Source: Thermoanaerobaculia bacterium
Lineage (GTDB): Bacteria; Acidobacteriota; Thermoanaerobaculia; UBA5066
Assembly (NCBI GenBank): GCA_038245905.1
Contig: JBBRRY010000014.1
Location: 20,614 to 84,613 of the forward strand
Reading direction: 5' to 3'
DNA length: 64,000 bases
Part shown: positions 105-62,935 of the stretch, one piece after another
Numbering within the stretch: the stretch's first letter is position 1
Layout: each line of letters begins with the position of its first letter
Made by a program: the position numbers and the translations under genes
Notes under the pieces: generated by a model
Databases searched by the model: none
What the model was told of the DNA's origin: nothing
What the model saw: only the letters and a program-made list of their open reading frames with translations

Positions 105-668
105 TCAGGCGATCCGGCCCGCCCGCAGGGCGAGGGGCCAGGAGATCGCCTTCTCCGCGGCGGCGTCGCCCCACGCGGCGGCGAGGCGCGGCGCGAGTTC
201 GGAGATGGGGTCGCGGCCGGTCTCCTTCGCGCAACGCTTCACGGCGGACCACGTGGAGAGGTAACCGAGCGTCCGTTCGAGATCCCACGCGGCCGTCATC
301 GTCACGGGCGGAACGGGGATTTCTTCGAATGGAAAGAGAAGATCGGCATAGCGGCGGGCGACGATCGCGCGCTCGGGCGGCCAGTACGCTTCGACGGACG
401 CGTGGAAGGCGCGGAAGACCGCATCGACCGCCGGCGAATCCGGGATGTCGAAGAGGTCGTACGCCCAGACGGCAATCGCCGCGCCCTCGCCCCCGACTCT
501 CTTCACCTCGGCTGCCTGCCCGCTCCCGGTGCCCGCGTCCCAGCAGACGGTGTGCCGCGTGACGAGCGCCGCCACCGCGTCGAAGAGCTCCGGCGGATAC
601 GTCGGCCGGAAGCGTGTGTAGTCGCCCGCGTGGCCCGAGAAGTGGTCCTGGAAAGTGGTCCCGCTCAG
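105..668 (-). pseudogene. Class I SAM-dependent methyltransferase with an in-frame internal deletion; probable CTG start
   Basis: FQDHFS..A.DY..FRPTYP, motif I WDAGTGSGQAA joined directly to EVKRV..AIAVWAY; the usual ~50-60 aa in between (motif II and AQALHWFD) is absent; CTG at 668 overlaps the guaB TGA. Confidence 0.7.
317..509. repeat. Dispersed motif pair: forward GGATTTCTTCGAATGGAAAGAG (centre 326) plus truncated reverse half CTCTCTTCACCTC (497-509)
   Basis: Read directly; the reverse copy stops at the methyltransferase deletion junction. Confidence 0.55.
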
Positions 669-2137
669 ATTTCTTCGCGCCGGTAGTTGGGAGCTTCCTT
701 CGTGATGATGACGTCGTGCGCGTGGCTCTCCCTCAGGCCGGCCGCCGTGATGCGGACGAATTTCGCCTTCTTCACGAGGTCGGGCAGGCTCGCCGCGCCG
801 GCGAGGCCCATGCCCGAACGCACGCCTCCGGTGAGCTGCGCCAGGAGCGTCGAGACGGGGCCCTTGTGCGGCACCATGCCCTCGATGCCCTCGGGCACCA
901 TCTTGCGCGGCTCCTCCTCGTCCTGGAAGTAGCGGTCGGCCGAGCCCTGTTTCATCGCGCCGATCGAGCCCATGCCGCGGTACGCCTTGAACGTGCGGCC
1001 CTGGTAGAGGATTGTTTCGCCGGGCGCCTCGTCGGTGCCCGCGAAGAGGCTGCCGATCATCACGGAGTGCGCGCCCGCGGCGAGGGCCTTTGTGACGTCG
1101 CCCGAGAACTTGATGCCGCCATCCGCGACGAGCGAGACGTTCGACTTGCCGAGACCCTTCACGCATTCCCGGATCGCGTGAATCTGCGGCACGCCCGCAC
1201 CGGTGACGACGCGCGTCGTGCAGATGGAACCCGGTCCGATGCCGATCTTCACGGCGTCCGCGCCCCGCCGGACGAGATCCCGTGTGCCTTCCGCCGTCGC
1301 CACGTTTCCCGCGAGCACGGGTGTCGAGGGAAACTTCCTCTTCAGGGACGTCAGGGCGGAAAGCACGCCCTCGCTGTGGCCGTGCGAGGAGTCGAGGACG
1401 AGGATGTCGACCTTCGCGGCGACGAGCTCACGGGCGCGGTCGAGGAGGTCGCTGCTCGCGCCCACGGCCGCGGCAACGCGCAGGCGCCCGAAGGAGTCCT
1501 TGCAGGCGCTCGGGTACTTGATCTGCTTCTGGATGTCCTTGACGGTTATGAGGCCCTTGAGATTTCCCGCCCGATCCACGACGAGGAGCTTCTCGATGCG
1601 GTGACGATGGAGGAGCTCCTTGGCCTGCTCGAGTGTCGTGCCCGGCGGACAGGTCACGAGGTTTTCCTTCGTCATGCGCTCGGAGATGGGGAGGTCCATG
1701 CGCGTCTCGAAACGAAGATCGCGATTCGTCAGGATGCCGACGAGCTTGCCGCGGTCGTCCACGACGGGAACACCCGAGATCCGGAAGTTCGCCATCACTT
1801 CGAGAGCCTCCGAGATCTTCTGCGTCGGACGGCACGTGACGGGGTCGACGATCATCCCGCTCTCCGACCGCTTCACCTTGTCGACCTCGGCCGCCTGGGC
1901 CTCGATCGTCAGGTTCTTGTGAATGACGCCGAGGCCGCCGTTCTGCGCCATCGCGATCGCGAGGCGCGACTCCGTGACCGTGTCCATCGCGGCCGCGAGA
2001 ATGGGGATGTTCAGGCCGATCCCCGTCGTGAGCCGGGTTTTCAGGTCGGTGTCGGCGGGATGGACCTTCGAGCGAGCGGGCAGGAGAAGAACGTCGTCGA
2101 ACGTGAGGGCGAGCGGGATCTCCCGTTCATTCACCAT
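665..2137 (-). CDS. guaB: IMP dehydrogenase
   Basis: [10 protein letters not shown], tandem CBS domains, catalytic [17 protein letters not shown]. Confidence 0.98.
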
Positions 2138-2177
2138 GCGGATTCATACCACAGAGGGCCCGTTTGAGGGGACGGCG

Positions 2178-5015
<2,838 letters not shown>

Positions 5016-5060
5016 GAGAGGAGGGCGCGCACGGCGCGCACGCGGAGGGCAGAGTTTAGC

Positions 5061-5102
5061 AGGGAGAGGGAGAAGAGGATTTTCTTAGAAAGGTGAGGAG
5101 AG
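5061..5102 (+). repeat. Dispersed motif, single intergenic forward copy GAGGATTTTCTTAGAAAGGTGAGGAGAG
   Basis: Near-consensus copy with GA-rich 5' tail. Confidence 0.75.
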
Positions 5103-5118
5103 TCTGACCGCTACGCGG

Positions 5119-6171: not shown

Positions 6172-7698
6172 CTAGGTCAGTAGGGCTGAGTCCGGGGCAG
6201 GCCGATAGCGAAGTGCCTCGGCGATATGGGCCGGCTGAATCACCGGGGCCTCCTCGAGGTCCGCGATCGTCCGGGCGACGCGCAGAACGCGCTGGAACCC
6301 CCGCGCCGACAGCGTGAGCCGGTCGACCGCGCGCGTGAGCAGCGCCCGGGCTTCGGGCGCCGTCTTGAGAATCGTGCGGGCGAGACGTCCCGTCAGGGCC
6401 GCGTTCACGAGGCGTGGATCTCCGCTCCGGGCCGCCTGGAGAGCGCGGGCCCCCTCGACCCGGGCGCGAACTGCGTGGGAGGCCTCGCCGTCTCCGTCCC
6501 CGCCGAGGTCCGACGAGGCGAGGGCCGGCACCTCGACGTGGAGGTCGATCCGGTCCAGGAGCGGCCCGGAAATCTTCCGGCGATACCGCGCGACGTCGCG
6601 GGGCGAGCACGAACAGGCGCGGCGCGGATCACCGCGGAAGCCGCACGGGCACGGGTTCATCGCGCCGACGAGTAGGAATCGGGCCGGAAACGTCCTCGCC
6701 CCGGCCACGCGCGCAACGGAGACCATTCCGTCTTCGAGCGGCTCGCGCAACGCCTCGAGGGCGTCCCTCCGGAACTCGGGCAGCTCGTCGAGGAAGAGGA
6801 CTCCGAAATGAGCGAGCGAGAGCTCCCCCGGGCGCGGGTCGGCGCCACCGCCCGCAAGCGCCGCCGCCGAAGCGCTGTGATGAGGCGCGCGGAACGGGCG
6901 CTCGGAGAGGAGTCCGCTGCCCGCGGGAAGGCGGCCCGCGACGCTCCAGATGCGCGTGACCTCGAGGCTCTCCTCGCGCGAGAGAGCCGGGAGGATTCCG
7001 GGCAGACGTCTCGCCAGCATCGTCTTGCCCGAGCCGGGAGGCCCGGAGAACAGGATGTTGTGGCTCCCGGCCGCCGCGAGCTCCAGCGCCCGCCGCGCGA
7101 TCGCCTGGCCCCGGACGTCCGCGAGGTCCGGCCCGGATCCGGCGGCCGGCCGGTGGACGGCCGAGGGCGCGACGCGCGGCAGGGGCTCGCGGCCGAGCAG
7201 GTGGGCGATCGCCGCCCCGAGGTGAGGCGCGGCGAACACGGGGAGGGAAGGCACGGCCGCCGCCTCTTCTGCGTTTCCCATCGGCACGAGCAGGGCCCGC
7301 TCCTCGCGGCGCGAGGCTTCGGCGAAGGACAGAACGCCGGGCACGGGGCGGAGCTCGCCGTCGAGAGCAAGCTCCCCGACGAGCGTCACGTGCCGGAGAG
7401 CCTCGGCAGGCAGGTCGCCGTTGGCCGCGAGAATCGCGAGGGCGACGGCGAGGTCCAGCGCCGTGCCGGATTTCGGGAGGTCGGCGGGCGCGAGATTCAC
7501 GACGACGGCTTTCGGCGGGATCGGAAAGCCGACGTGGCGGAGCGCCGAGCGGACGCGCTCGCGGCATTCCTTCACGGCGGCGTCCGGCAGGCCGACGATC
7601 GTGAGGGCAGGAAGGCCCGCCCCGATCGCCGCTTCCACGACGACCGTGCGGCCCTCGAGGCCGGCGACCGTCGCGGAGTACGCCCGGGCGACGGTCAT
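6172..7698 (-). CDS. comM: YifB/ComM family Mg-chelatase-like AAA+ ATPase
   Basis: IVGLPDAAVKE, VNLAPADLPK, GPPGSGKT, PFRAPHH, LFLDELPEF, NPCPCG, SGPLLDRID. Confidence 0.93.
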   Translation of the reverse strand: MTVARAYSATVAGLEGRTVVVEAAIGAGLPALTIVGLPDAAVKECRERVRSALRHVGFPIPPKAVVVNLAPADLPKSGTALDLAVALAILAANGDLPAEALRHVTLVGELALDGELRPVPGVLSFAEASRREERALLVPMGNAEEAAAVPSLPVFAAPHLGAAIAHLLGREPLPRVAPSAVHRPAAGSGPDLADVRGQAIARRALELAAAGSHNILFSGPPGSGKTMLARRLPGILPALSREESLEVTRIWSVAGRLPAGSGLLSERPFRAPHHSASAAALAGGGADPRPGELSLAHFGVLFLDELPEFRRDALEALREPLEDGMVSVARVAGARTFPARFLLVGAMNPCPCGFRGDPRRACSCSPRDVARYRRKISGPLLDRIDLHVEVPALASSDLGGDGDGEASHAVRARVEGARALQAARSGDPRLVNAALTGRLARTILKTAPEARALLTRAVDRLTLSARGFQRVLRVARTIADLEEAPVIQPAHIAEALRYRPAPDSALLT

Positions 7699-14762: not shown

Positions 14763-15887
14763 GTGAGTGCATCCGTTCGCGATTACTACGAAGTTCTCGG
14801 TGTGGGACGAAACGCGTCCCCCGAGGAGATCAAGGGCGCCTACCGGAAGGCGGCGCTGCAGCACCATCCCGACAAGAACCCGGGCGACACGCGCGCCGAG
14901 GACAAGTTCAAGGAGGCCGCGGAGGCTTACTCGGTCCTTTCCGATCCCGATAAGCGCGCGCGTTTCGACCGCTTCGGAGTCGAAGGCGTGCGCGGCGCGG
15001 GCGGGGGGACTGGCTTCGACCCGACTCAGTTCGTGGACTTCGCCGACATCCTCGGAGACCTGTTCGGTTTCGCTTCGGGCGGCGACACGCGCGCGTCCCG
15101 GCGTACGGGCGAGGACCTGAAAGCCGACGTGACACTGTCCTTTGAGGACGCCGCCTTCGGCTCTGAAGTCTCGGTTCCGATCCAGCGATACGAGCGCTGC
15201 GACGCGTGCCGAGGCCAAGGTGGGCGCGGCGGAGCCGTGCCGCTGACCTGCCCAACGTGCCGGGGCCAGGGCCGCGTCCAATACAGGCAGGGGTTCTTCG
15301 CGGTCGCGCGCCCATGCCCCGACTGCGGAGGCTCGGGCGAGCGAGTCAAGGACCCGTGCCCGGACTGTCGCGGTGACGGGCGCACGCGCCACGCGCGAAC
15401 GTTGACGGTGGCGATTCCGCCCGGCGTGGACGAGGGCGCGCGGCTGCGCCTCACGGGTGAGGGAAACGCGGGCCGGCGGGACGGGCGCCCCGGCGATCTC
15501 TACGTCTTCATCTCGGTGATGTCGCACGAGCAGTTTCGGCGTGATGGCTTCGACGTCGTGCTCACGTGGGCCATCCCGTTCCACGTCGCGGCTCTCGGGG
15601 GGACGCTCCGCGTGCCGACGCTGCACGGCGACGCGACGTTCGACGTGCCTTCCGGTACCGCGGCGGGCCGCGTCTTCACGCTCAAGGGCAAGGGAGTCCC
15701 GCGCCTAGACGGCCGCGGGAAGGGTGACCAGCACGTCCTCCTGACGGTCCGGGTGCCGAAGAAGATGACGCACGCGCAGAAAGAGGCCGTCGAGAAGCTC
15801 GCGGAAGCGTTCGGGTCGGAGTCGGGAACGCCCACGAAAGACGAAAGAGGATTCTTCGAAAGGTTGAAGGATTTTCTTGGTTCCTAG
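14763..15887 (+). CDS. dnaJ: Chaperone DnaJ
   Basis: J domain with HPD, four CxxCxGxG repeats. Confidence 0.97.
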
Positions 15888-16105
15888 CGGCACGGCCGTC
15901 CGCATCGAGGTGCCGGCGGCGCTCGCCGAGAGGATCGAAGAGCCAGAAGGGGATTTCTTAGACGGATTAGGAGGCCTGGAGTTCTCGTCCACGGTCTCGA
16001 CGGACGGCAACGTCCTGATCTGGGTTGACTCCGTAGACCGGGCGGAGGCTCTCGCGAGGCTCGCCGCGATCGGACTTCCCGGCCTTTCCACCTTCGAAGA
16101 AATCC
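15845..16105. repeat. Dispersed motif: forward copies (centres 15857, 15960) and reverse copy (16096)
   Basis: GGATTCTTCGAAAGG, GGATTTCTTAGACGG, CCACCTTCGAAGAAATCC; spacing 136. Confidence 0.7.
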
Positions 16106-16731
16106 CCCGGGACTGGGTGGCCGAGTCGGCTGCTTTGAGGAGAGCGGTCCTCGTGGAGCGATATCTCTTCGATCCCCACGACGGCGACTTGGCTTCAGCC
16201 GTGCCGCCCGGCGTGCGGCGTCTCCATCTCCCCGCCGTCCGGGCCTTCGGGACGGGCTCGCACGAGTCCACGCGCCTCGCCGTGCGCCTCCTTCTCGCCC
16301 TTGACCTCCGCGGGGCGCGCGTCCTCGATGTCGGCTGCGGCACCGGAACGCTGGCTTTCGTGGCCGCGCTCGAAGGCGCACGCCACGTCATCGCGTTCGA
16401 CCTCGACCCCTATGCCGCGTTCGCGACGCGCGAGCAGGCGCGCGCGAACGGCATCCTCGGCGTTTCGGCATTCGCGGGGCCTCTCGACGCGCTCGCGGCG
16501 AAAACCCGCTTCGACGTCGTCGTCGCGAACATGATTCAGGAAGAGGTCGCGCCTCTGCTCCCGGCGATCCACGATCGCCTCGCGCCGAGCGGCCGGCTGC
16601 TGTGCTCGGGGCAGCTCGTGGAGAGGGAGGAAGACTTCCGATATTTGCTTCGGAAGACAGGCTTCCGGCCGGTCCGTTCGCTTCGAGAAAACGAGTGGTT
16701 CGGGTCAGCCTGGATTTCTTCGAATGGCTGA
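15877..16731 (+). CDS. prmA: Ribosomal protein L11 methyltransferase
   Basis: [31 protein letters not shown]; position after dnaJ. Confidence 0.88.
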
Positions 16732-17494
16732 GGACACTCTCTCTCGTCCGCCGCGCGTCTACGTGCCGGATCTCGCGGAGTTCCTGGGGAGCTCCGACGA
16801 GAACCTGAAGATTTCTTTGAAGGTGGAAGAGCGAGATCACGTCCGCTCGAGGCGCCTCACGGATGGCGACGAAGTCGTCGCGCTCGACGGAAAGGGCCTT
16901 CGGCTGCGCGCGACGCTGACTCGCAGCGGCTCGGCCTTGGCCCTCTTACCATTTAGGCAAATCTCCTCTTCCTCTGTTGTTTCTTCTTCTCTCCCCGGCG
17001 AGCCCGCGAATCGCGTGACCGTGCTGCTCGCGTGCGCGGAGCCCGCGCGGGTCGAATGGGCAATCGAGAAGGGCACGGAGTGCGGCGCGGCCGGCTTCGT
17101 GCTGCTGGACGCCGAGCGCTCCCAGCGTGCGCACGTTGCGGCGCTCTCGTCGCCTGCGCGGCTCGAGCGTCTCCGCCGCATCGCGGTCGAGGCAACGAAG
17201 CAGTGCGACCGAACTCTCGTGCCGGTCGTGGAGGGTCCGAAGAGCACGAAAGAGTTTCTTAGAGGGGGAAGAGGGAAGGAGACGCTGTTCGTAGCGGACC
17301 CCGCGGGTGCGCCGATGGGCTCGTTCGCGCCAGAAGCCGCGACGGTCGCCATCGGCCCCGAGGGAGGATTCGCTCCGTCCGAACTCTCTCAATTCAAAGA
17401 AAATCATTCTTTTGTTCTCTCTCTCGGTCCCCGCATCCTCCGCCTCGAAACGGCCGTGGTCGTGGCGCTCACGCGGTTGGTCGATCCCGGCTGA
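16724..17494 (+). CDS. rsmE: 16S rRNA m3U1498 methyltransferase
   Basis: IEKGTECG, EATKQC, IGPEGGF, SLGPRILRLETA. Confidence 0.92.
   Translation: MAEDTLSRPPRVYVPDLAEFLGSSDENLKISLKVEERDHVRSRRLTDGDEVVALDGKGLRLRATLTRSGSALALLPFRQISSSSVVSSSLPGEPANRVTVLLACAEPARVEWAIEKGTECGAAGFVLLDAERSQRAHVAALSSPARLERLRRIAVEATKQCDRTLVPVVEGPKSTKEFLRGGRGKETLFVADPAGAPMGSFAPEAATVAIGPEGGFAPSELSQFKENHSFVLSLGPRILRLETAVVVALTRLVDPG
16807..16970. repeat. Dispersed motif pair in rsmE (centres 16818/16954)
   Basis: GAAGATTTCTTTGAAGGTGGAAGAG ... CTCTTACCATTTAGGCAAATCTCC; spacing 136; weaker forward copies at 16651 and 16721. Confidence 0.7.
17250..17410. repeat. Dispersed motif pair in rsmE (centres 17261/17396)
   Basis: AGAGTTTCTTAGAGGGGGAAGAG ... 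CTCTCTCAATTCAAAGAAAATC; spacing 135. Confidence 0.7.
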
Positions 17495-19288: not shown

Positions 19289-19926
19289 GTGAGGAGATCC
19301 TCGGCCCTGTCGACGTCGTGGAGGATGGACTCGTCGAAGCCCTCGAGGTGCAGCACCTTCACGTCGGGCTCGGCGAAGAGGCGGTTTAGCCGCGCGGAGT
19401 CGGGCCACGAGAGGAGCCGCGCGCGCAGCGCCTCGGGGATCACGAGCGGGTGGCCGCGGCGGCGGGCGTGGGTGGGGACGACGACCGTCGTCTGGCTCGC
19501 TTCGACAGAACGCGCCGCGTCCAGAACCGTTCGGAGAGAAGATTTGCTTAGAAAGGGAAGATCGGCGGGGGAGATCGCGAAGTGCGTCGAAACGGGGCTC
19601 GCTGTGGCAAGGCCTGCCTTCACGGATGTGAACATCCCGTTCGGCCAGTTCACGTTCTCGACGAATCGCGGGGACGGAGCGGCTGATCCGTCCCCCGATA
19701 CCCTTCTAAGCAGGTTCTCTTCGATCGTGGCTCGAATGTCGGCGGCGCCGCATCCGAGGACAATGAGCAAATCGTCTATTCCCGCTTCCAGCCACGTCTC
19801 ACAGACTTTCTGAAGCAATGGCTTCCTGTCATTGCCGACCGGAGCGAGCATCTTCGGCGAGCCGAAGCGCGAAGAGGCGCCGGCCGCGAGGAGCACTCCG
19901 GAGACGAAGGCTTTAGGTCCGCTCAG
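19285..19926 (-). CDS. mocA: MocA-type molybdenum cofactor cytidylyltransferase (probable CTG start)
   Basis: LLAAGASSRFG.PK, GMFTSVKAG, ADLPF, GHP, DVD; lies in the xanthine-dehydrogenase-family operon. Confidence 0.85.
   Translation of the reverse strand: MSGPKAFVSGVLLAAGASSRFGSPKMLAPVGNDRKPLLQKVCETWLEAGIDDLLIVLGCGAADIRATIEENLLRRVSGDGSAAPSPRFVENVNWPNGMFTSVKAGLATASPVSTHFAISPADLPFLSKSSLRTVLDAARSVEASQTTVVVPTHARRRGHPLVIPEALRARLLSWPDSARLNRLFAEPDVKVLHLEGFDESILHDVDRAEDLLT
19537..19722. repeat. Dispersed motif pair in mocA (centres 19550/19707)
   Basis: AGAAGATTTGCTTAGAAAGGGAAG ... ACCCTTCTAAGCAGGTTCTCTTC; spacing 157. Confidence 0.7.
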
Positions 19927-20171
19927 TCTTCGCCCTCGAAGCACGCGCGACCGGCTCGGCAGTCGTCGAGGAACGCGGGCTGGCCGTCCGGGCCGACGGG
20001 CCCCATGACCTGCAGGCACCAGTACGCGGCCGACGTCGAGGGGTGCTCGCGGGCGTGATCCTCCCAGTTACCCGTCGCGACGAACATCGTTTTCGTGCGC
20101 AGGTGGCGGCAGCACAGCGCCGGGTCGAGCGTGACGGCGTCCGAGCCGCCGAGTCCGTCTTGCGCGCTCAT
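19923..20171 (-). CDS. Small Cys-rich hypothetical protein (82 aa) in the molybdoenzyme operon
   Basis: 4-bp start/stop overlaps with both neighbours; CCRHLRTK, YWC, GPDG, C-x5-C. Confidence 0.8.
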   Translation of the reverse strand: MSAQDGLGGSDAVTLDPALCCRHLRTKTMFVATGNWEDHAREHPSTSAAYWCLQVMGPVGPDGQPAFLDDCRAGRACFEGED

Positions 20172-21175
20172 GCGAATTCCTCCGTCCCGTCGGAGAGGCC
20201 GGCCGCCGCGAGAAGGGTCCGGCGGACGACGGCCGCGACCATCGGGAGCTTGTACGCGTTCTTTTCGAGAGGGGTCGCGCCGTCGAGCGCGGCCTGTCCG
20301 GCCTGCGCCGCGAGCGCCGCGTCGATTCTCTTGCCCTCGACGAGCGCCTCGGCCGCCTTCGCGCGGAACGGGACGGGCGCCGCGGAACCGATCACGATTC
20401 GGACGTCCTTCGCGACGCCGCCCGCGTCGCGGTATGCGACCGCCGCGTCCGCAAGCGGCCAGTCGAACGACTGCTTCTGCTTAATTTTCCGGTATGCCGA
20501 ACGCAGGCCTTGCGCCTTGTCGACGTGGATCTCCACAATCAGCTCGCCGGGCTTGAGCGCGTTCTCCGAGAAGATATCGACCTCTGGTCGCACGAAGAAG
20601 TCCGCGGCAGGGATCGTGCGCCCGCCGCCTGCCGCGAGCGTCTCGATCCGCGCGTTCAGGGCGAGGAGAGCGACGCCGGCCGCCGAAGGGTGGACGATCG
20701 CGCACGTGTTATTCCCGAAGACGGCATGGAATTCGTTCTCGCCGGATTTCGCGAGGCACTCGACGCCGCCCTTCTTGAGGCACTGGAACTCCGACGAGCG
20801 GAAGTACCAGCAGCGCGGGCGCTGGCAGAGGTTCCCCGCGAGCGTCGCCGCGTTGCGGATCTGCGGCGTCGCGGCGCCGAGGCAGGCGTCCGCGAGGGCG
20901 GGGAATTCGGACTTCAGGCCCTCCGCAATCGCACTCAATGTCACCAACGCGCCGATTGAGACGGCGCCGGAAGATTTTCTTTGAATGGAAGAATGGGACG
21001 TCAGCCGCCTCAGGTCCACGACCTGGTCCGGTGCCAGGTTGTACTCCTTCAGTCGGTCGAGGAGCTCCGTTCCCGCTCCCTTACCTTCAGAAGAAATCTT
21101 CTCTTTCTTCGCCTTGGCGAGGAGGCCGACCGCCTCCTCCCAGGACTTCGGCTGCAACCTTTCGAAGCTCTTCAC
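20168..21175 (-). CDS. FAD-binding subunit, PaoB/YagS type, with a Cys cluster for 4Fe-4S
   Basis: GAGTELL, ATPQIRNAATLAGNLCQRPRCWYFR..C..C..C, NAYKL; GTG overlaps upstream TGA. Confidence 0.93.
   Translation of the reverse strand: MKSFERLQPKSWEEAVGLLAKAKKEKISSEGKGAGTELLDRLKEYNLAPDQVVDLRRLTSHSSIQRKSSGAVSIGALVTLSAIAEGLKSEFPALADACLGAATPQIRNAATLAGNLCQRPRCWYFRSSEFQCLKKGGVECLAKSGENEFHAVFGNNTCAIVHPSAAGVALLALNARIETLAAGGGRTIPAADFFVRPEVDIFSENALKPGELIVEIHVDKAQGLRSAYRKIKQKQSFDWPLADAAVAYRDAGGVAKDVRIVIGSAAPVPFRAKAAEALVEGKRIDAALAAQAGQAALDGATPLEKNAYKLPMVAAVVRRTLLAAAGLSDGTEEFA
20970..21110. repeat. Dispersed motif pair in the FAD subunit gene (centres 20982/~21089)
   Basis: GAAGATTTTCTTTGAATGGAAGAA ... CTTACCTTCAGAAGAAATCTTCTC; spacing about 107. 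Confidence 0.7.
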
Positions 21176-23529
21176 GCCCTCACCTCCCGCTTCGGGACCT
21201 TCCCGAGCGCATCGAGGATCCTTGCTGGCGTGATCGGGAGTGCCGTCGGCCGGATGCCTGTGGCGTGCGCGATCGCGTTGGCGACCGCGGCAGCCGTCGG
21301 CACCGTCGCGGGCTCGCCGATGCCGCGCGCGTGCGCGTTGTTCTTTCCCGGGTAAAAGTCCACGAGGAGCGGGACGATCTCCGGCGCGTCCTTGCTCCCG
21401 AGGACCTTGTAGAACTCGACGTTCGGGTTCAGCACGCGGCCGGAGCGCTCGTCCACGATGCGCTCCTCGAAGAGTGCGTAGCTGATTCCCTGAAGAATCC
21501 CGCCGCGGATCTGGCTCTCGACGCCCGTCTTCCACACGGGCTGGCCGCAGTCGTGGACCGCGACGACCTTCTTCACGGCGACGACGCCGGTCTCGACGTC
21601 CACGACGACCTCGGCGAACTGCGCTCCGAAGATCCGGGTGTCGCTTCCGTCGTAGTCCTTCGCGCGGTCGCCCGTCGCGACGAGCGTCTCGCCGGGCAGG
21701 CGCGAGCACACCTTCCTGAATTCCGCGGTCTTGCCCTTCGCGGAAAAGACGCCGTTCGCGAGCGCGACCTCGGACGCGGGCGCGCCGAGGAGGTTCGAGG
21801 CGACGTCGAGGAGCTTCTCGCGCGCGTGAACCGCGGCGGCGCGGACGGCCGGAATGAGGGACCCGGTCGTGACGGAGCCGCCGGAGGCGGGCCCGAACGG
21901 AAAGCGCGAATCGCCGATCTTCACGCGGAGGCTCTCCACGGGCAGACTCAGCTCCTCGGCGACGACCATCGCGATCGGGTTGCGCACGCCGCCCCCGATG
22001 TCCTGGACGCCGTTCTCGACCTCGACGCTCCCGTCGCGGTGGATCCGGACGAGGACCTGCGAGCCGGGCGCGACGAACGTGTACCAGAGGGACGCGGCGC
22101 AGCCGAGGCCGCGGCGGAGCGGGCTTCCCGCGGCCGCGGCGGCGGCGTTCGCCTTCGTGATCTCGGCCCGCCGGGACCAGCCGAACTCCTTCGCTCCGAT
22201 TTCCCACTCGGCGCGCCGGACCTCGGAGGGGTCGTTCTGGAGCCGGAGCGCGAGCGGGTCCATCCCGAGCTTGTCGGCAAGCGCTTCGAGCGCCGTCTCG
22301 ACCGCGAAGCAGCCCTGCGGGTGGCCGGGTGCGCGCATCGCGCAGCCGGGGCCGAGGTGCGTGAAGACGTCCGACTCAGCGACCTTCACGGCCGGAAATC
22401 CGTACGCGGACTTCACGAATCCGCCCGTGCCCGTTCCCGTCGCGACACCGGCGGTGCCGAAGGACTCGTAGTCGGCGGCCGTCACGGTCCCGTCCTTCCG
22501 GTAGCCGAGCTTCACGCGGTTCCACGAGTCGGGGCGGTTTCCGGACGACAGCTGATCCTCCTTGCGGTCGAGGACCATGAGGACCGGCTTGCCGGCCTTC
22601 TTTGCGAGCTTCGCCGTGAAGACGCCGTAGTCGCGCGCGCCGAACTTCGAGCCGAAGCCGCCGCCCGCGAACTCGGCGCGGACGATGACCTTGTCCTTCG
22701 CAAGCTTGAACACCTCGCTAAGCTCGTCCCGCACGCTGAACGTTCCCTGGGTCGACGCTGTGACCTCGAGCGTGTCGCCGACCCACTCGGCGAACATCGA
22801 GTGCGTTTCCATGCAGACGTGCGTCTGGACGGACGTCGTCGTCACGACCTCGAGCGTCCCGTCCGCCTCGGCGAAGCCCTTGTCGACGCCGCCGTTTTCG
22901 CCCTTGAGCGAGTTCTTCGGCCCGCGGACGTTGCCGGTCTGCGGAAGGACGGCCGCGGCGCCGGGCTCGTCGCCCGCGCTGCGCTTCTCCTCGACGGGCT
23001 TCTGGAAAACGAGGGGCGAGCCCTCCTTCCGGGCGGCCGCGAGGTTCACGGTGTGCGGGAGGACGTCGTAGGCGATCTTGACGGCGCGAAGGGCGCCTTC
23101 CGCGGCCGCGGGCGTCGGCGCGGCGAGGGCGAGGATCGCTTCGCCGTGATACCGGACAATGGTCTTTTTCGGGTTCTCGATGACGACGCCGGGGACTCGT
23201 TCGGCCTGAGAGGTGTCGATCGAGAGGATCTTTGCGTGGGCGTGGGGCGAGCGGACGATTCGCGCGTGAAGCATCCCCGGCTTCCGCACGTCGTGCGTGT
23301 AGACGGCGCGGCCCGTGACCTTGATCGGGCCATCGAGTCGCGGGCGGCGGCGCCCCGTCACGGGCCGAGGCCCGACCGGATAGGGCGCTGGGTCGCCAGG
23401 AGGAAGAGAGATTTTCTTAGAAAGTGTGTGGCCAGCGAGCCCGATCTCGACCGTCACTGTGGCTCCCGCTGCCCCTGGCACCTTCAAAGAAGTCTTTTCT
23501 TTCTCTTTCTCTTTTTTCTCCTCAGCCAT
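21172..23529 (-). CDS. Molybdopterin-binding subunit, PaoC/YagR type
   Basis: KVTGRAVY, RSPHAHA, GGGFGSK, AMRAPG, QDIGGG, GIGEP. Confidence 0.94.
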   Translation of the reverse strand: MAEEKKEKEKEKTSLKVPGAAGATVTVEIGLAGHTLSKKISLPPGDPAPYPVGPRPVTGRRRPRLDGPIKVTGRAVYTHDVRKPGMLHARIVRSPHAHAKILSIDTSQAERVPGVVIENPKKTIVRYHGEAILALAAPTPAAAEGALRAVKIAYDVLPHTVNLAAARKEGSPLVFQKPVEEKRSAGDEPGAAAVLPQTGNVRGPKNSLKGENGGVDKGFAEADGTLEVVTTTSVQTHVCMETHSMFAEWVGDTLEVTASTQGTFSVRDELSEVFKLAKDKVIVRAEFAGGGFGSKFGARDYGVFTAKLAKKAGKPVLMVLDRKEDQLSSGNRPDSWNRVKLGYRKDGTVTAADYESFGTAGVATGTGTGGFVKSAYGFPAVKVAESDVFTHLGPGCAMRAPGHPQGCFAVETALEALADKLGMDPLALRLQNDPSEVRRAEWEIGAKEFGWSRRAEITKANAAAAAAGSPLRRGLGCAASLWYTFVAPGSQVLVRIHRDGSVEVENGVQDIGGGVRNPIAMVVAEELSLPVESLRVKIGDSRFPFGPASGGSVTTGSLIPAVRAAAVHAREKLLDVASNLLGAPASEVALANGVFSAKGKTAEFRKVCSRLPGETLVATGDRAKDYDGSDTRIFGAQFAEVVVDVETGVVAVKKVVAVHDCGQPVWKTGVESQIRGGILQGISYALFEERIVDERSGRVLNPNVEFYKVLGSKDAPEIVPLLVDFYPGKNNAHARGIGEPATVPTAAAVANAIAHATGIRPTALPITPARILDALGKVPKREVRA
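23403..23523. repeat. Dispersed motif pair at the 5' end of the Mo subunit gene (centres 23419/23486)
   Basis: GAGAGATTTTCTTAGAAAGTG ... CACCTTCAAAGAAGTCTTTTC plus long TC tract; spacing 67. Confidence 0.72.
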
Positions 23530-25920: not shown

Positions 25921-28648
<2,728 letters not shown>

Positions 28649-30723: not shown

Positions 30724-30727
30724 ACCT

Positions 30728-37830: not shown

Positions 37831-38657
37831 CGAGTCTCTCCGGCGTCAAGCGCCCAGCCGGCGCCGCTCCGGACCACCGGAAGCGGCACGAGGGACTCTC
37901 CCTCGCACGGGCCGGCGATGCACAGTCCGCCTTCCGGGTCGAAAAGAGCTCCATGGTTCCGGCAGACGAGAAAGGCGCCGTCGGCCGTGAGCAGCGGCTC
38001 GCCGCCTCGGTCGAGCGGAATCGCCACGTGGGGGCACACGTTGCGGAAGGCGCGCGCGCCGTCCGGAGCGGCCACGAGGATCCCGGACACGGTTCCATTT
38101 CCATCGGAGCGAGGCTTGCGGAAGGCGAACGCGCGGAGAGAGGGGAGAGACTCGGAATTTTCTATGAAAGGGGAGCGGGAAGCGAACGCGCGAACGTGCT
38201 CCCGGCCTTCGTCGGACTCTGTGTCGGCGAATGTGCTGCCTGAGGACTCGTCGAGGAGGTGGCGGAGGGCCGCGGCGTCGGCAGGGGGCGTCGGCAGGAG
38301 CCGCGCTTCAGGCGCGGGCGAGAACCTCACAGCGTCGACACCGGCAGCGCGCGGCTCCCCGGCCAATCCCCCGACTCGAAGAAATAACAGCGTCACATGC
38401 TGCGATGAGCCGCCCGGAGCCGCTCCTGCGACGGTCTCGAACCTCCAGGGCTCGAGGGCGACGGGAGTCACGTCCATCTCCTCGCGCCACTCGCGGACGA
38501 GCGCGTCCTCGGGCGTCTCTCCCGGTTCCACCTTTCCGCCGGGAAACTCCCAAAGGCCGGCCCATGCGCGGCCGGCCGGCCGGCGCGCGAGGAGAAGCCG
38601 CCCCTCCCGCACGAAGACTCCAGCCACGACGAGAAGCGTTCCCGGCGCCGCGCTCAT
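37827..38657 (-). CDS. MutT-like NUDIX hydrolase fused to a Rieske 2Fe-2S domain
   Basis: WEFPGGKVEPGETPEDALVREWREE NUDIX box; C-terminal CPH...CRNHGALF..GLC..GPC; ATG overlaps the queG stop. Confidence 0.85.
   Translation of the reverse strand: MSAAPGTLLVVAGVFVREGRLLLARRPAGRAWAGLWEFPGGKVEPGETPEDALVREWREEMDVTPVALEPWRFETVAGAAPGGSSQHVTLLFLRVGGLAGEPRAAGVDAVRFSPAPEARLLPTPPADAAALRHLLDESSGSTFADTESDEGREHVRAFASRSPFIENSESLPSLRAFAFRKPRSDGNGTVSGILVAAPDGARAFRNVCPHVAIPLDRGGEPLLTADGAFLVCRNHGALFDPEGGLCIAGPCEGESLVPLPVVRSGAGWALDAGETR
38136..38386. repeat. Dispersed motif, degenerate pair in the NUDIX-Rieske gene (centres 38165/38378)
   Basis: GA tail + GGAATTTTCTATGAAAGGGGAG; weak reverse copy ACTCGAAGAAATAA. 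Confidence 0.4.
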
Positions 38658-43382: not shown

Positions 43383-43514
43383 TCGTGAAAGCCAATGAAC
43401 GGTCGCGGCCGCTCTCTATCGGATTCATCGGTCCGCTGCCCCCCACCCGGTCCGGCATCGCCGACTACGACTCCGAAATCCTCTCTTCACTTTCTAAGCA
43501 AATCTCTCTTTCCC
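43301..43514. repeat. Dispersed motif pair spanning two GT genes (centres 43313/43495)
   Basis: AGAGGCTTTGAAAGGGTGAGAG ... CTCTCTTCACTTTCTAAGCAAATCTCTCTTTCCC; spacing 182. Confidence 0.68.
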
Positions 43515-48227: not shown

Positions 48228-49529
48228 ATGTTCGACTCCCTCTCAAACCGTCTCCAGCGCGTCTTCAAAGAACTCCGTGGCGAGGGTCATCTCACGGAGT
48301 TCCACGTCGACGAGGCCCTGAAGGAGATCCGGACGGCACTCCTCGAGGCGGACGTGAACCTCCAGGTCGTCAAGGACTTCACCGCCCGGGTCCGGGAGAA
48401 GGCGGTTGGACAGGAAGTCCTCACGTCGTTCTCGCCGGCCCAGCAGGTCATCAAGATCGTGAGGGACGAGCTCACGCGGGTCCTCGGCGGCGAGCAGGCG
48501 CCTCTCTCGCTCAAACGGCGACCTTCCGTGGTCCTGCTCGTGGGTCTCCAGGGTTCGGGTAAGACGACCACGGCCGCGAAGCTGGCGCTCTACCTGAAGA
48601 CCACGTTTCGGAAGCAGGTGCTCCTTGTGCCCGCGGACGTCCAGCGGCCTGCCGCGACGGAGCAGCTTCGCACGCTCGCGAAGGAGAACGGCCTCATGGC
48701 GTTCGACCCGAAGGGCGAGCCGGACGCCGTCAAACGCGCGAGATCCGCCGTGAAGGACGCGAAACTTCTCGGCTACGACGTCGCAATCGTCGACACGGCG
48801 GGGCGGCTGCACATCGACGAGCTCCTGATGGACGAGGTGGCCCGGATTCGGGAGGCGTGCGAGCCCGACGAGATCCTCTTCGTGGCGGACGCGATGACCG
48901 GCCAGGATGCCGTGCGCTCGGCTGAGGCTTTTGCCGCAAAACTGCCGCTCACGGGTGTCATCCTCACGAAGACGGACGGCGATGCCCGCGGAGGCGCCGC
49001 GCTTTCGATCGCGACAGTCGTGGGCAAGCCCCTGAAGTTCGTCGGCACGGGTGAGAAGGTGGGCGCGCTGGAGCTGTTCCATCCCGATCGCGCGGCCTCG
49101 CGCCTTCTGGGTCTCGGCGACGTCCTTACCCTCATCGAGAAAGTCTCGGCCGAGACCGACGAGGCCGCCGCCCTCCGCACCGCCGAGAAGCTCCGCAAGA
49201 ACACGTTCACGCTGACCGACCTACGTGAGCAGATGGCGCAGCTCAAGAAGATGGGACCTCTCGGAGGGCTTCTCGGCCACCTGCCGAAGATCGGGCCGCT
49301 AAAGGGCCTTGCGAACCTCGACATACCGGACGACGCCACGAAGAGCCTCGAAGCTATGATCGATTCAATGACGCTGGCCGAACGCGAGGATCCGAAGGTC
49401 CTCGACGCAAGCCGCAAGAAGCGCATCGCGAGGGGCTCCGGGACGTCCGTGCCCGAGGTGAACCAGCTTCTCAAGCAATATCTGTCGATGAAGAAGATGA
49501 TGAAGGGGGCCGCGCGCATGCGCGGCTGA
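48228..49529 (+). CDS. ffh: Signal recognition particle protein
   Basis: LLEADV, GLQGSGKTT, DTAGR, TKTDGDARGG, M domain RIARGSG. Confidence 0.98.
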   Translation: MFDSLSNRLQRVFKELRGEGHLTEFHVDEALKEIRTALLEADVNLQVVKDFTARVREKAVGQEVLTSFSPAQQVIKIVRDELTRVLGGEQAPLSLKRRPSVVLLVGLQGSGKTTTAAKLALYLKTTFRKQVLLVPADVQRPAATEQLRTLAKENGLMAFDPKGEPDAVKRARSAVKDAKLLGYDVAIVDTAGRLHIDELLMDEVARIREACEPDEILFVADAMTGQDAVRSAEAFAAKLPLTGVILTKTDGDARGGAALSIATVVGKPLKFVGTGEKVGALELFHPDRAASRLLGLGDVLTLIEKVSAETDEAAALRTAEKLRKNTFTLTDLREQMAQLKKMGPLGGLLGHLPKIGPLKGLANLDIPDDATKSLEAMIDSMTLAEREDPKVLDASRKKRIARGSGTSVPEVNQLLKQYLSMKKMMKGAARMRG

Positions 49530-60681: not shown

Positions 60682-61554
60682 ATGCTGACGGATGTCTTCG
60701 CGCTGGTGCTCCTCCAGCTCGCGCTCGGCGTGGCGTTCTGGACGGCGGTCACCTCGTCGAAGGATTTGTCGGGGGGATTTTTTGTTCTGCACGCGGGCAC
60801 CGTCGCCATCTGTCTTTCACTCGTGTGGCTGGTGTCAGGCAGTAGAGAAGATTTGCTTGGAAAGGGGATGGCGGCGGAGTCGGTGCCGCTCGTGGCGCCG
60901 CGGTTGCTTCTCCTCGCGGCGCTCGGGGCGGCCATTGCGGCAACGCTTGCGGCGCGCCTGAGCACGCCGGCAGCTCTTACCCTCTCAAAGAAATCTCTCT
61001 TTCTTTCTCTTAGCAGAATCCTCCTCTTCTCGTCTTTCCTCCTCTCTTTCGCCCTTCTCTTCTCACGGCTGAGCGGCGAACCGTTCCTTTCTCGCCGCGG
61101 CCTGGGCCCGCTGTGGCTCTTCGGCGGGCTGCTGCTCGGAGCGCTCCTTTTCGGCGCTGTCGTTTGGGCGATGAATCTCGGGCACTGGTATCTCGTCTCG
61201 TCCTCGATCCCTTTCATCCTTCTCGTGCGGGCGACCGAGGCGTTCGCCGTGCTCGCGGTTCTGCGCACGGCCTACGCTGCGGTCGCCCTCGGCGCCCTCG
61301 CGAGCGTGTCGACCGGCGAGGCGGGGGAGGCGCTCGCGAGCCTTCTCGACCCGATGCGCGACGGTTTCTTCTTCTGGTCGCGCGTGCTGTGGGGTCTCGC
61401 AGCGCCGCTCCTCCTCGCCCCGTTCGTCGTGAAGACAGCGCGGATGAAGTCCAACCAGGCGGCGACGGGCCTTCTCTATGTGGGCCTCGTCTTCGTCCTC
61501 GTGGGCGAGCTTCTCGCTTCCTATCTCACGTTACGGTCGGGACTTCCCGTCTGA
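60682..61554 (+). CDS. Polytopic membrane protein with GHWYL and NQAATGLLY motifs
   Basis: About 8 hydrophobic helices; AMNLGHWYL and SNQAATGLLY look conserved; function unknown. Confidence 0.75.
   Translation: MLTDVFALVLLQLALGVAFWTAVTSSKDLSGGFFVLHAGTVAICLSLVWLVSGSREDLLGKGMAAESVPLVAPRLLLLAALGAAIAATLAARLSTPAALTLSKKSLFLSLSRILLFSSFLLSFALLFSRLSGEPFLSRRGLGPLWLFGGLLLGALLFGAVVWAMNLGHWYLVSSSIPFILLVRATEAFAVLAVLRTAYAAVALGALASVSTGEAGEALASLLDPMRDGFFFWSRVLWGLAAPLLLAPFVVKTARMKSNQAATGLLYVGLVFVLVGELLASYLTLRSGLPV
60845..61062. repeat. Dispersed motif pair in the membrane protein gene (centres 60859/60987)
   Basis: GAGAAGATTTGCTTGGAAAGGGGA ... CTCTTACCCTCTCAAAGAAATCTCTC plus long TC tract; spacing 128. Confidence 0.7.
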
Positions 61555-62713
61555 AGGCGGCGCGCGGCCCGGGGAGCGTGGCCGAGAGCGCGGCCGCGAG
61601 AAGCGGAAGACCCGCGAGAACCGGGAAAACGGCCGCGACCCCCTGACGGTCGGCGAGGGCCCCGAGCAGCGGCACGCCGATGCCCCCGATCCCGATCGCG
61701 AGACCCATTGTCACGCCGCCCGCGATGCCTTCACGCCCGGGCAGGTACTCCTGACCCAGGACCACGGCGACGCTGTAGGTGCCGACCGTGCCGGCTCCGA
61801 TCAGGACGAGGCTGAGGAGACCGGCGGGCCCCGGCGCACGGAGGAAAAAGAGGAGGAGCGGTGCGAGGGGGAGAAGGAAGCCGACGAGAACCGCGCGGCG
61901 GCCGAAGCGATCCGCCAGACGGCCGCCCGCCAGAGTGGCGAGGGCCCCGGCCAGGAGCATCGCCGTCACGGCGAGAGCCGCCTTCTCCTTAGCGACTCCG
62001 CGGACCGTCACGAGATACAGGGGAACGAACGAGACGAGGCCAAAGGCGAACAGAGAGCGGATGACGATGACTCCGGAGAGTCTCGCGAACGCTCCCCATC
62101 GCGGCCGGTCGGCGCCGCCCCGGTCGAGCCGCTGTGTGGCCTGGTGCCTCAGGGGCCGCAGGCGCGGAAGCTCGCGAACGAGGAGAGCCGCCATGAGTCC
62201 GGCGGGCACGATCATCCAGGTCACGCGCGCGACGCCTCCGGACCCCGCCAGGGCCGCGATCGCGACCGGCCCGAGGGCGATGCCGAGGTTTCCCCCCACC
62301 GAAAACACGCTCATGCCGGTCGCGCGGCGCTCGCCGGACGCATAGTTCGCGTAGCGCGCGCTCTCGGGATGGAACGCCGCGACGCCCGCGCCTGAGATCA
62401 GGACCGCGGCGATCGTCGCCGGATAGCTCGTGACGGCGCCGGCGAGCGCGAGGCCGCCTCCCGCGGCGAGGACGCCGAGCGGGATGAGAAAGGGAAGAGG
62501 GCGGCGGTCGGAGAGGTGCCCGAGAAGCGGCTGGATGAGGGAGGAGAGCAGCGTCGCGGCGAGGACGATCCCGCCCGCCGCCGCGTACGTCAGCCCCCGC
62601 TCGGCGATGAGGAACGGCAGCAGCGCTGGCACGGCTCCCTGGTTCATGTCGTTGACGACGTGCCCGGCGGCGAGCCAGGAAAGGGCGCGGCGGTCGAGGG
62701 ACCTGCTGACCAT
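61526..62713 (-). CDS. MFS transporter (Fsr-like)
   Basis: H..ND, QPLLG.LSDR, AAFHPE, FSVGGNLG, GGRLADRFGRR. Confidence 0.92.
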   Translation of the reverse strand: MVSRSLDRRALSWLAAGHVVNDMNQGAVPALLPFLIAERGLTYAAAGGIVLAATLLSSLIQPLLGHLSDRRPLPFLIPLGVLAAGGGLALAGAVTSYPATIAAVLISGAGVAAFHPESARYANYASGERRATGMSVFSVGGNLGIALGPVAIAALAGSGGVARVTWMIVPAGLMAALLVRELPRLRPLRHQATQRLDRGGADRPRWGAFARLSGVIVIRSLFAFGLVSFVPLYLVTVRGVAKEKAALAVTAMLLAGALATLAGGRLADRFGRRAVLVGFLLPLAPLLLFFLRAPGPAGLLSLVLIGAGTVGTYSVAVVLGQEYLPGREGIAGGVTMGLAIGIGGIGVPLLGALADRQGVAAVFPVLAGLPLLAAALSATLPGPRAAFRREVPTVT

Positions 62714-62728
62714 GTGGAGCGAATGGTA

Positions 62729-62935
62729 GAAGAAGATTTTCCTTCGGAAGAAAGAAAGAGAAAAGAGAGAAAAGAAAGATTTCTTTGAAAGTGGAGGAGA
62801 GAGCGGCCATCTAGTGGTGCATGCTCCTTCCGTGCGCGTATCGGTTTATTGCTCCGAATGCATGGAGCGGATCGAGCTGCCCCCGCCCGCCTCGGAGGCG
62901 GCTGGCCAAGTCGAATGCCCTTCTAAGAAATCTTC
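62729..62935. repeat. Dispersed motif: forward copies (centres 62745, 62786) and reverse copy (62924)
   Basis: Long GA tract, AAAGATTTCTTTGAAAGTGGAGGAGAG ... CCCTTCTAAGAAATCTTC; spacing 138. Confidence 0.72.

Follow-up and report, generated by a model that had tools for sequence, protein, structure and literature searches.

The stretch analysed here, hereafter the window, comprises 64,000 nucleotides (contig C14, JBBRRY010000014.1, positions 20614-84613) of the draft genome GCA_038245905.1 of a Thermoanaerobaculia bacterium (G000; 3.80 Mb, 113 contigs, 67.8% GC), whose genus is uncultured and known from metagenome-assembled genomes (MAGs) of soil and sediment. Its genes, among them alaS, rsmE, dnaJ and prmA, and some of the spaces between them carry copies of a DNA word of the form (purine tract)-GATTTCTT[A/T/C]GAAGGTGAAGAGGG, here called an arm, which is about 35 bp long and contains the most over-represented 10-mer of the genome. 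An earlier description made from the letters of the window alone (the original prediction) had presented the word as a single dispersed motif and overlooked that its copies form convergent pairs. The true unit is shown to be an inward-facing pair of arms under a strict orientation rule. Nine such units account for 22 of the 28 arms of the window; one more unit, the tenth, has a left arm that scores weakly. The units are given below with the strand of the arms and their scores in a weight matrix described further on.

15839..16114, convergent cluster + + -: cores 15851-15860 and 15954-15963 (left) and 16093-16102 (right), scores 25.2, 21.1 and 28.8; spans the 3' end of dnaJ and the 5' part of prmA (Pfam).
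16800..16972, convergent pair in rsmE: cores 16812-16821 (+) and 16951-16960 (-), 139 nt apart, scores 38.6 and 19.9; rsmE identified from Pfam and from RsmE chains in the PDB.
17243..17414, second pair in rsmE: cores 17255-17264 (+) and 17393-17402 (-), scores 35.8 and 28.0; encodes STKEFLRGGRGK and SELSQFKENHSF.
19532..19725, pair in a MobA-like nucleotidyltransferase (NTP-transferase) gene (19285-19896, -): cores 19544-19553 (+) and 19704-19713 (-), scores 33.5 and 19.6; Pfam NTP_transf_3.
20964..21108, pair in the gene of a flavin adenine dinucleotide (FAD)-binding subunit (20168-21175, -): cores 20976-20985 (+) and 21087-21096 (-), scores 32.3 and 29.3.
23401..23504, intergenic pair between the genes of a 2Fe-2S subunit and a Mo-binding subunit: cores 23413-23422 (+) and 23483-23492 (-), 70 nt apart, scores 35.3 and 33.1.
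27383..27594, pair in alaS: weak left arm with its core near 27395 (+), right core 27573-27582 (-), scores 15.1 and 27.9.
28172..28282, pair in the C-terminal linker of alaS (gene by Pfam): cores 28184-28193 (+) and 28261-28270 (-), 77 nt apart, scores 21.9 and 33.5; encodes DSLRKKDKE and SSPSKKF.
60841..61031, cluster + - -: cores 60853-60862 (+), 60984-60993 (-) and 61010-61019 (-), scores 27.3, 34.8 and 22.3; at the 5' end of an open reading frame (ORF) without a Pfam family.
62727..62942, intergenic cluster + + -: cores 62739-62748, 62780-62789 and 62921-62930, scores 26.5, 46.6 and 26.5; between a divergent major facilitator superfamily (MFS) gene (start 62713, -) and the next gene on the + strand.

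The orientation rule is evident from neighbouring matches no more than 400 nt apart, 183 of which stand in the order + -, with the GAGGG ends facing inward and the purine tracts outward, against 16 in the order - + (3 of them within 200 nt), 33 in the order + + and 27 in the order - -. Among 402 strong matches, a reverse-oriented partner lies within 400 nt on the GAGGG side in 74-78% and on the purine-tract side in 5%. The two arms are 40-300 bp apart, with a median spacing of 117 nt (5-95%: 50-275) and a distribution modulo 3 of 56/76/51; no convincing helical or codon periodicity was found in the spacing, the best value being R = 0.175 at period 5 with an uncorrected p of about 0.004. Larger clusters follow the scheme (+)n...(-)m (+ - 126 times, + + - 18, + - - 13 and + - + - 6), in which tandem arms are iterated with a period of 24-31 nt; tandem arrays adjoin glyS and tolB. 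Convergent clusters hold 415 of the 619 arms of the genome and leave 204 unpaired. Most pairs (130 of 183, 71%) are intragenic. Among intergenic regions, 4 of the 345 between convergent genes and 24 of the 1486 between tandem genes (1-2%) contain a pair, and 8 pairs lie in divergent promoter regions; genes, both kinds of intergenic spacer and divergent promoters are all occupied. The shortest spacers belong mostly to pairs located between genes or near the ends of genes. The rule is kept in G021, a second genome of the genus (33 pairs + - against 2 - +), and in G049 of the sister genus, where the arms have no purine tract and begin with CCGGRGATTTCTT.

Arms were scored with a 36-nt weight matrix refined on G000 and counted above a score of 16, which gives 619 matches in the genome and 28 in the window. 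The reversed matrix yields 230 matches at the threshold that yields 619; as a control it is compromised by the purine-rich, almost mirror-symmetric make-up of the arm. Counts of short words point the same way: the 10-mer TTTCTTAGAA occurs 109 times in the genome against 0.4 expected from base composition and ranks first among 10-mers, GATTTNCTTNGAA with at most one mismatch has 9 matches in the window against a mean of 0.57 and a maximum of 3 in 100 dinucleotide shuffles, and the core TT[TG]CTTNGAA is present in 334 copies genome-wide. In the consensus a purine (GA) tract of about 20 nt is followed by GA-TTTCTT-N-GAA-GGTGAAGAGGG, and the inner end is sharp at the last GGG. The consensus is cleaner between genes, where the central N is A in 60% of copies; in genic copies it is A in 36%, C in 28% and T in 34%, a spread attributable to the stop codons that TTAGAA and TTTGAA create in some frames. 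An assembly or library artefact is ruled out by the many MAG naming styles and assemblers involved, by multi-Mb contigs and by orthologous sites in diverged genomes, and a master copy or autonomous element by the wider + ... - pairs (0.4-6 kb), which contain ordinary genes. The original prediction had counted about 30 copies between 317 and 62935; all 13 positions it cited carry the motif, both ends of that range fall on copies (cores 320-329 and 62921-62930), and the observation is confirmed as real and stronger than reported.

Genes were taken from a crude codon-usage caller (3197 genes), with a Pfam check covering about 25 genes of the window. At least one arm is carried by 246 of them. The placement of most copies inside genes, as first described, stands for 243 of the 334 core copies (115 sense, 128 antisense), but 91, about a quarter, are intergenic, an enrichment of about 4-fold; arm density between genes is 3-5 times that in genes. 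Arms occupy all three frames in both orientations, as had been noticed in the window, and the peptides reported there do recur (PSSPSKKS, FKEN, DFLEGEE). When synonymous codons were shuffled within genes (8 shuffles), the 453 in-gene matches fell to a mean of 67 (range 52-74) and the 132 convergent pairs to a mean of 3.4 (range 1-6). The GC content of third codon positions (GC3) is 0.45 in the arms of G000 and 0.48 in those of G021, against backgrounds of 0.88 and 0.94. This enrichment over the synonymous shuffle, the use of all frames and both strands and the retention of rare AT-ending codons in two species place the constraint on the nucleotides and not on the protein, as the original prediction had proposed, and the first two of these rule out a protein motif. 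No link was found between arm density and GC content or codon nativeness.

The word is confined to a narrow lineage. Counted strictly (at most one mismatch in 14 nt), it has 43-245 copies in 28 of 28 genomes of one Thermoanaerobaculia genus, to which G000, G001, G017 and G021 belong, 0-20 copies in 8 genomes of the sister genus, and 0-2 copies both in 26 genomes of eight other genera of the family and in 16 genomes from two other families of the order, the unpublished genome G030 included. A one-genome-per-species scan of GTDB returned matches almost only in records titled Thermoanaerobaculia or Acidobacteriota, and the suspected lineage specificity is thereby borne out. The idea that the outgroup uses another dialect of such a word was rejected, as 400 kb of the motif-free outgroup genome G028 hold no comparable word, only intergenic arrays of the TTTCGGATTTCGAATTT type.

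Within the genus, the positions are stable. In an alignment of G000 with G021 (261 kb, about 77% identity), the orthologous site is kept for 51 of 61 strong sites of G000 and 55 of 62 of G021 (84-89%), and sites found in only one of the two mostly coincide with indels. Codons for the same amino acid are identical in 76.4% of cases within arms against 66.4% in the background, while amino-acid identity at arms is 0.73 against 0.81, i.e., the arms lie at poorly conserved residues, in agreement with the permissive positions that the original prediction had likened to those of known uptake words. This stability, together with AT-rich codons held against the codon pressure of the genome, indicates nucleotide-level selection or drive. 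Paired arms are kept better (45 of 50) than unpaired ones (16 of 25; chi-square calculated by hand, p about 0.01-0.02). Individual units of the window behave in different ways. Both arms of the alaS linker pair are present in all four aligned genus genomes although the flanks carry indels; the weak left arm of the other alaS pair scores 33.6 in G021, and G001 and G017 lack it with no indel within the arm; both arms of the FAD subunit pair are present in G000, G001 and G021 and both absent in G017 (about 12 substitutions in 24 nt, no indel); and the pair at 23401..23504 is kept in G021 and G001, the whole unit being a gap in G017. The arm pairs are thus shown to be a lineage-specific DNA-level signal in which two inward arms flank host sequence and are kept at the nucleotide level across species.

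That the sequence between the arms belongs to the host follows from several comparisons. Spacers have genomic composition and are mutually unrelated, except in six paralogous Ser/Thr kinase genes. In the FAD subunit the alignment to PDB 5y6q_B covers the spacer and its two arms with a single 1-residue gap, and the 25 residues between the arms include the conserved GTELLDRLK; the RsmE arms align to solved RsmE chains with a gap of 0-1 residue. When 130 pair-bearing proteins were compared with the 400 kb of G028, 25 were matched, 19 of the matches span the pair, and in 19 of these 19 the spacer aligns as protein. The arms themselves lie in variable loops, in some cases matching the G028 sequence base for base in length and in others as insertions of 9-13 residues (p136, p173, p61, p105). 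Spacer amino-acid identity between G000 and G021 is 0.72, below the background of 0.81. Arms are shown to have overwritten gene sequence at protein loops that tolerate change, for the most part through substitutions and small indels.

These comparisons bear on mobile insertion units inside genes. Rickettsia palindromic elements (RPEs) and in-frame MITEs (miniature transposable elements with inverted repeats) resemble the arms in being repeats inside protein genes that are read through and yield surface or linker peptides. An RPE, of about 100-150 bp, is inserted as a complete unit and lengthens the protein, whereas the DNA between two arms is conserved host sequence and many arms involve no indel. 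Since the spacer is host coding sequence, whole-unit insertion of a MITE or RPE is excluded, and the interiors, aligning to PDB and outgroup homologues, are unrelated among copies.

A second possibility is that the pairs are invertons, in which a site-specific recombinase would flip the spacer and so recode or switch off many genes in a phase-variable manner. Inverted repeats do flank segments of 40-300 bp, and Bacteroides has inverton families that share one repeat consensus. Intragenic invertons, likewise inverted repeats flanking tens to hundreds of bp within genes, exist, one of them being of 57 bp (bioRxiv 10.1101/2023.03.11.532203). In the present case one consensus is spread over about 180 loci, the arms of a pair are not identical, and the central base differs in 57% of pairs, which suits a shared crossover core poorly. 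No inversion is seen: every spacer inspected in a four-genome alignment (9.6 kb) is colinear, G000-G021 BLAST blocks run through the pairs, and Logan public contigs over 9 kb have no strand-changing joint at any arm, although contigs cannot show rare forms and consensus assemblies cannot reveal minority orientations. The public sequencing runs listed as containing the sequence include no RNA run. Spacers also encode conserved residues of essential genes (alaS, rsmE, the FAD subunit), so that flipping would be lethal or costly. Inversion is a very improbable explanation of the pairs.

Another reading places the function in the RNA. The purine and pyrimidine arms would pair in the transcript and form either a terminator that works in both directions and depends on translation, or a target of RNase III for the removal of untranslated or antisense RNA, with an AU-rich core just after the GGUGAAGAGGG/CCCUCUUCACC stem. 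The geometry is favourable to it: a convergent pair reads alike on both strands, so either gene orientation gives 5'-purine arm...pyrimidine arm-3', copies on the same strand as the gene (115) and on the opposite one (128) are similarly frequent with the purine arm first in either direction, and only this arm order places the weak A/U-rich hybrid after the stem. The predicted fold of the intergenic pair at 23401..23504 has its arms paired, the ends of about 60 called genes fall inside or just ahead of a purine arm, and the preference of the shortest-spacer pairs for intergenic places and gene edges is in line with this role. Other results are not. Arm-arm covariation is absent, as identity within pairs equals that of permuted pairs (z = 0.09), which makes selection for a hairpin unlikely; in mRNA orientation there are about as many A.C mismatches (463) as G.U wobbles (479; p = 0.63); and the fold energy of the intergenic pair is ordinary (z = -1.19, 24 of 200 shuffles folding as well). 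On these three grounds a co-evolving hairpin was rejected. Loops of 40-300 nt are unlike known intrinsic terminators, and the few convergent and tandem spacers with a pair, the location of most pairs inside genes and the fold z-score speak against a general terminator role. The 8 pairs in divergent promoters fit no better: the cluster at 62727..62942 lies in such a region, so that its arms need not share one transcript. Rfam finds no known RNA family in the window, and loss of Rho is ruled out in the genus, Rho being present there and in all the others. An RNA-level role appears quite improbable.

It is also conceivable that the arms are a relic of a past burst of mobile or templated writing, now inactive, and are simply inherited. 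Tiny insertion units, paired insertions of transposon ends, or primer-like or reverse-transcriptase-templated patches would be candidates for such a source. Most sites predate the split of G000 and G021, single-species sites are mostly at indels, some arms are the 9-13-residue insertions mentioned above, the pairs are placed at random along the genome, and a sharp inner end combined with a fuzzy or iterated outer end would fit primers or transposon tips facing their target. A relic would nevertheless decay, yet both species retain AT-rich third positions where genome-wide GC3 is about 0.9, and arms exceed the background in synonymous identity; many arms have taken the place of host sequence base for base, with no indel, and a MITE or RPE origin is excluded by the host nature of the spacer. 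Neither a reverse transcriptase (RVT_1) nor a transposase of the Y1_Tnp family, which includes the REP-associated tyrosine transposases (RAYTs; REP, repetitive extragenic palindromic), was found in G000 or in 24 of 28 genus genomes. We regard the relic as unlikely.

On the mobile-element enzymes themselves, Y1_Tnp is present (in frames of about 320 aa) in 17 of 17 genomes of genus g18, in 7 of 8 of g12 and in 4 of 28 of the motif-rich genus, and RVT_1 in 4 of 28 genomes of g1 and 0 of 8 of g12. Most of the family's other genera do have Y1_Tnp. The motif-rich genus seems to have shed both enzymes.

The arms share with REP sequences, bacterial interspersed mosaic elements (BIMEs) and REP doublets forming hairpins (REPINs) their copy number in the hundreds, the inverted doublets, the restriction to a lineage and vertical inheritance. 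REPs form hairpins outside genes, have a short spacer of fixed length and rely on RAYTs; of the present pairs 71% are intragenic, their spacers consist of variable host sequence, the two arms show no covariation and Y1_Tnp is mostly absent. Assignment to this group was rejected on the 130 of 183 intragenic pairs, the lack of covariation and the lack of Y1_Tnp in G000.

The reading that we tentatively favour is that of a self-DNA signal comparable to the uptake signal sequences (USS) of Pasteurellaceae and the DNA uptake sequences (DUS) of Neisseria, serving a polar step of uptake or recombination in which each arm would promote the transfer of its partner. The arms would be recognition sites for a polar DNA transaction favouring self DNA, most likely uptake and recombination in natural transformation, as with USS and DUS. 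If an arm assists the import or recombination of nothing but the DNA lying to its GAGGG side, an arm at the end of an incoming piece could not carry itself into the recipient, and only its partner would be transferred; an arm a short way inside and pointing back would be carried along, resulting in reciprocal hitch-hiking of convergent arms. Polar action of this kind would be self-reinforcing for convergent pairs and (+)n...(-)m arrays but not for divergent pairs. The resulting biased transfer (molecular drive), possibly together with selection, might build and hold arms wherever the protein tolerates them.

The likeness to USS and DUS is considerable. In both cases a lineage-specific word is present in hundreds of copies on both strands and in several frames, and lies in core genes at poorly conserved residues. 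Poorly conserved residues, clean intergenic copies and stable positions are described for USS and DUS in PMC2817400 and 10.1101/2025.10.24.684340, and with them the present arms also share denser intergenic copies and maintenance at the nucleotide level. The differences are the two-arm unit with its arms 40-300 bp apart, the arm of about 35 bp with a purine tract, a density about 10 times lower, the use of rare codons and the host, a member of Acidobacteriota and not of Proteobacteria. The unit of USS and DUS is a single copy, whereas here 415 of the 619 arms stand in convergent clusters with host-sequence spacers. No description of USS, DUS, Chi, FtsK-orienting polar sequences (KOPS), parS or matS includes the pair rule, and plain membership in the USS/DUS class is not established.

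G000 encodes uptake genes, namely ComEC, DprA, two ComEA, two secretins, PilT/PilB-type ATPases and a comM-like protein. The hint of competence that the original prediction drew from the comM-like and PilT-like genes of the window holds as far as their presence goes, but ComEC occurs in all ten genera of the family, with or without the motif, so that competence genes do not discriminate. A weak lead to a receptor is a secreted ComEA-like protein with two helix-hairpin-helix (HhH) domains, encoded as follows.

G000 contig C12, 35123-35797, -: ComEA-like secreted protein, 224 aa, two HHH_3 domains.

Full-length relatives of this double-HhH ComEA are found in most genomes of the genus and of the sister genus, and in one genome each of two further genera, most other genera having single-domain ComEA only. 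As to its gene, a purine arm overlaps the start and a pyrimidine arm encodes the Ser-rich linker of the protein (PSSPSKKS).

A number of points weigh against a polar uptake signal, beginning with the ubiquity of ComEC just mentioned. That an arm acts in a polar way was assumed in order to account for the orientation rule. The double-domain ComEA is only weakly matched in 4 of 28 genus genomes and is present in the motif-free genomes G041 and G060. Unpaired arms (204 of 619) score like paired ones (28.4 vs 29.6), and a purely mutual-help model predicts otherwise. No USS or DUS is known to need a partner 40-300 bp away. There is about one pair per 12-20 kb, roughly 10 times sparser than USS and DUS. 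The arms use rare codons, while USS reading frames correlate with preferred codons, as stated in PMC2817400, and the inverted pairs of USS and DUS are tight terminator hairpins according to 10.1101/2025.10.24.684340. Finally, spacers are not raised in similarity between species, their synonymous identity being 0.60 against a background of 0.667; this low conservation might stem from the kind of place that accepts arms or from faster change in their neighbourhood.

A self-DNA signal of the uptake type and a site for a DNA-binding protein remain, in our assessment, the two leading readings. In the second, which is nearly as likely as the first, the pairs would be sites at which a lineage-specific protein bridges or loops 40-300 bp, maintained by purifying selection; a nucleoid-associated factor, a domesticated transposase-like factor or a global regulator might be the binder. 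Each arm fits the consensus independently of its partner, as expected for separate contacts, and the strict orientation with iteration at 24-31 nt resembles the multiple sites at transposon ends. Constraint at the nucleotide level in conserved places, the better retention of paired arms and the indifference of pairs to genes, spacers or divergent promoter regions would all be consistent with protein binding. REP/BIME elements serve gyrase and IHF in Escherichia coli, and about 300 units in 3.8 Mb are comparable to the BIME copy number of that species. On the other side, no candidate protein was found in the analysis, and the helical periodicity that is usual for looping on one face of the helix is missing. 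A chromosome organiser would be expected to be spaced more evenly: no even spacing was found along the chromosome, where pairs are near Poisson (mean 1.0, variance 1.38 per 20 kb) and 66 of 154 windows of 20 kb have none. Moreover, about 260 arms of about 25 bits each in coding sequence are hard to build by selection alone, without drive.

Polar words of the Chi type offer a further comparison, as they too are asymmetric and orientation-dependent, and a convergent pair would offer each direction of travel one correct copy. Chi words are 5-8 nt long, single and skewed with replication direction; here the arms are of 35 bp, in convergent arrangement only and without skew. Both strands are used equally (256 + and 265 - in the 20-kb windows counted), and the strand bias that the original prediction proposed to look for is absent: the difference between + and - counts does not follow GC skew, taken as a proxy in draft contigs (rho = 0.01, p = 0.90), with 145 + and 148 - in windows of positive skew and 111 and 117 in windows of negative skew. 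A skewed word of the Chi/KOPS type is thereby ruled out.

The element departs from all tested defining features of MITEs and RPEs, REP/BIME elements, Chi-type words and terminators, and from USS/DUS in its two-arm unit. In the literature searched, supplements excluded, there was nothing on inverted repeats of Thermoanaerobaculia and nothing relevant on uptake sequences of Acidobacteria, and four 12-letter words of the motif retrieved only unrelated primer and virus papers; nothing described so far has this paired layout within genes. If it is an uptake or recombination signal, it would, possibly, be a self-promoting genomic signal of a new kind, the first of the uptake type outside Proteobacteria and the first with a pair as its unit, with a drive powerful enough to place about 300 units in the coding sequence of essential genes genus-wide. 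If it is read by something other than an uptake or recombination machine, the element would be still further from anything known.

Only two bacterial families are known to tag their genomes with an uptake word, and the way in which such words spread into coding sequence is a matter of debate. The arms provide an independent case in a distant uncultured phylum, and the convergent-pair rule, which any mechanism must explain, points to a polar process. An uptake or recombination signal would imply sequence-selective gene exchange in abundant soil and sediment Acidobacteriota, and the arm would be a ready oligonucleotide for fishing out its receptor. Sites for a binding protein would instead mean a proteome-wide cost paid for a DNA-level function, in 246 of 3197 genes, through rare codons and imposed peptides.

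The remaining arms of the window are unpaired.

308..343, +: core 320-329, score 33.8.
5069..5104, +: intergenic, between the end of an M23 peptidase gene and the start of secA (strands by Pfam), core 5081-5090, score 38.0.
26813..26848, +: in the catalytic domain of alaS, core 26825-26834, score 25.3; encodes GYVLRKVIR.
38147..38182, +: in a NUDIX/Rieske gene (-), core 38159-38168, score 25.3.
43478..43513, -: core 43492-43501, high score of 42.3; near the 5' end of a glycosyltransferase ORF.

The arm in the catalytic domain of alaS is partly conserved in G021 and G001, and the Pfam domain of the glycosyltransferase (Glycos_transf_1) lies further downstream of its arm. Three more genes belong to the housekeeping context of the window.

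6172-7698, -: comM-like gene of the Mg-chelatase family (Pfam).
24253-25449, +: PilT-like T2SSE ATPase.
48228-49529, +: ffh (SRP54).

Of the host genes named in the original prediction, dnaJ, prmA, rsmE, the MobA-like gene, alaS and the glycosyltransferase hold, but several of its long ORFs proved to be shadows on the wrong strand. The ORF at 1923-5096 (+) lies over secA (2178-5015, -), and those at 20043-20984 (+) and 20938-23781 (+) shadow the genes of the FAD subunit (20168-21175, -) and of the Mo-binding subunit (21172-23361, -); none of the three has a Pfam family, and the 2Fe-2S subunit gene is likewise on the - strand. At 68% GC this genome has many shadow ORFs of about 1000 aa, which can mislead a reading by eye. 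For annotation the arms are a hazard, as they create recurrent low-complexity peptides and long shadow ORFs in these MAGs.

The six paralogous Ser/Thr kinase genes that share related spacers carry a pair whose arms occupy the same two N-lobe sites (PE[ED]F[LF]E.EE ... YSFEEIP). They lie at the following positions of G000.

C24: 11447, 14191, 27682 and 31342, kinase paralogues with a pair in the N-lobe.
C11: 59930, the same.
C25: 29577, the same.

The outgroup kinase reads PEDLAGDPE at the place of the arm, so that a peptide already present there appears to have been drawn to the motif.

In about 19 cases a called gene start has a purine arm 20-40 nt upstream. The 3' end of the 16S RNA and its trailer in genus genomes read GGATCACCTCCTTTCTAAAGGACC, and TCACCT and TTCTAA are common to it and to the pyrimidine arm CTTCACCTTCTAAGAAATC, so that the purine arm has a possible resemblance to an extended Shine-Dalgarno sequence without GGAGG.

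The outgroup G028 has intergenic arrays of degenerate units of the TTTCGGATTTCGAATTTG type, sometimes as divergent inverted sets about 110-130 nt apart, at the following places.

G028 contig C1, about 49.3-49.5 kb, 195.2-195.4 kb, 181.0 kb and 399.1 kb: intergenic arrays.

Similar runs of GGATTCGGATTTCGG adjoin some arms of G000 (C4 at about 89974, C30 at about 14895), and arrays of the G028 type may be related to the origin of the arm core (GGATTTC...).

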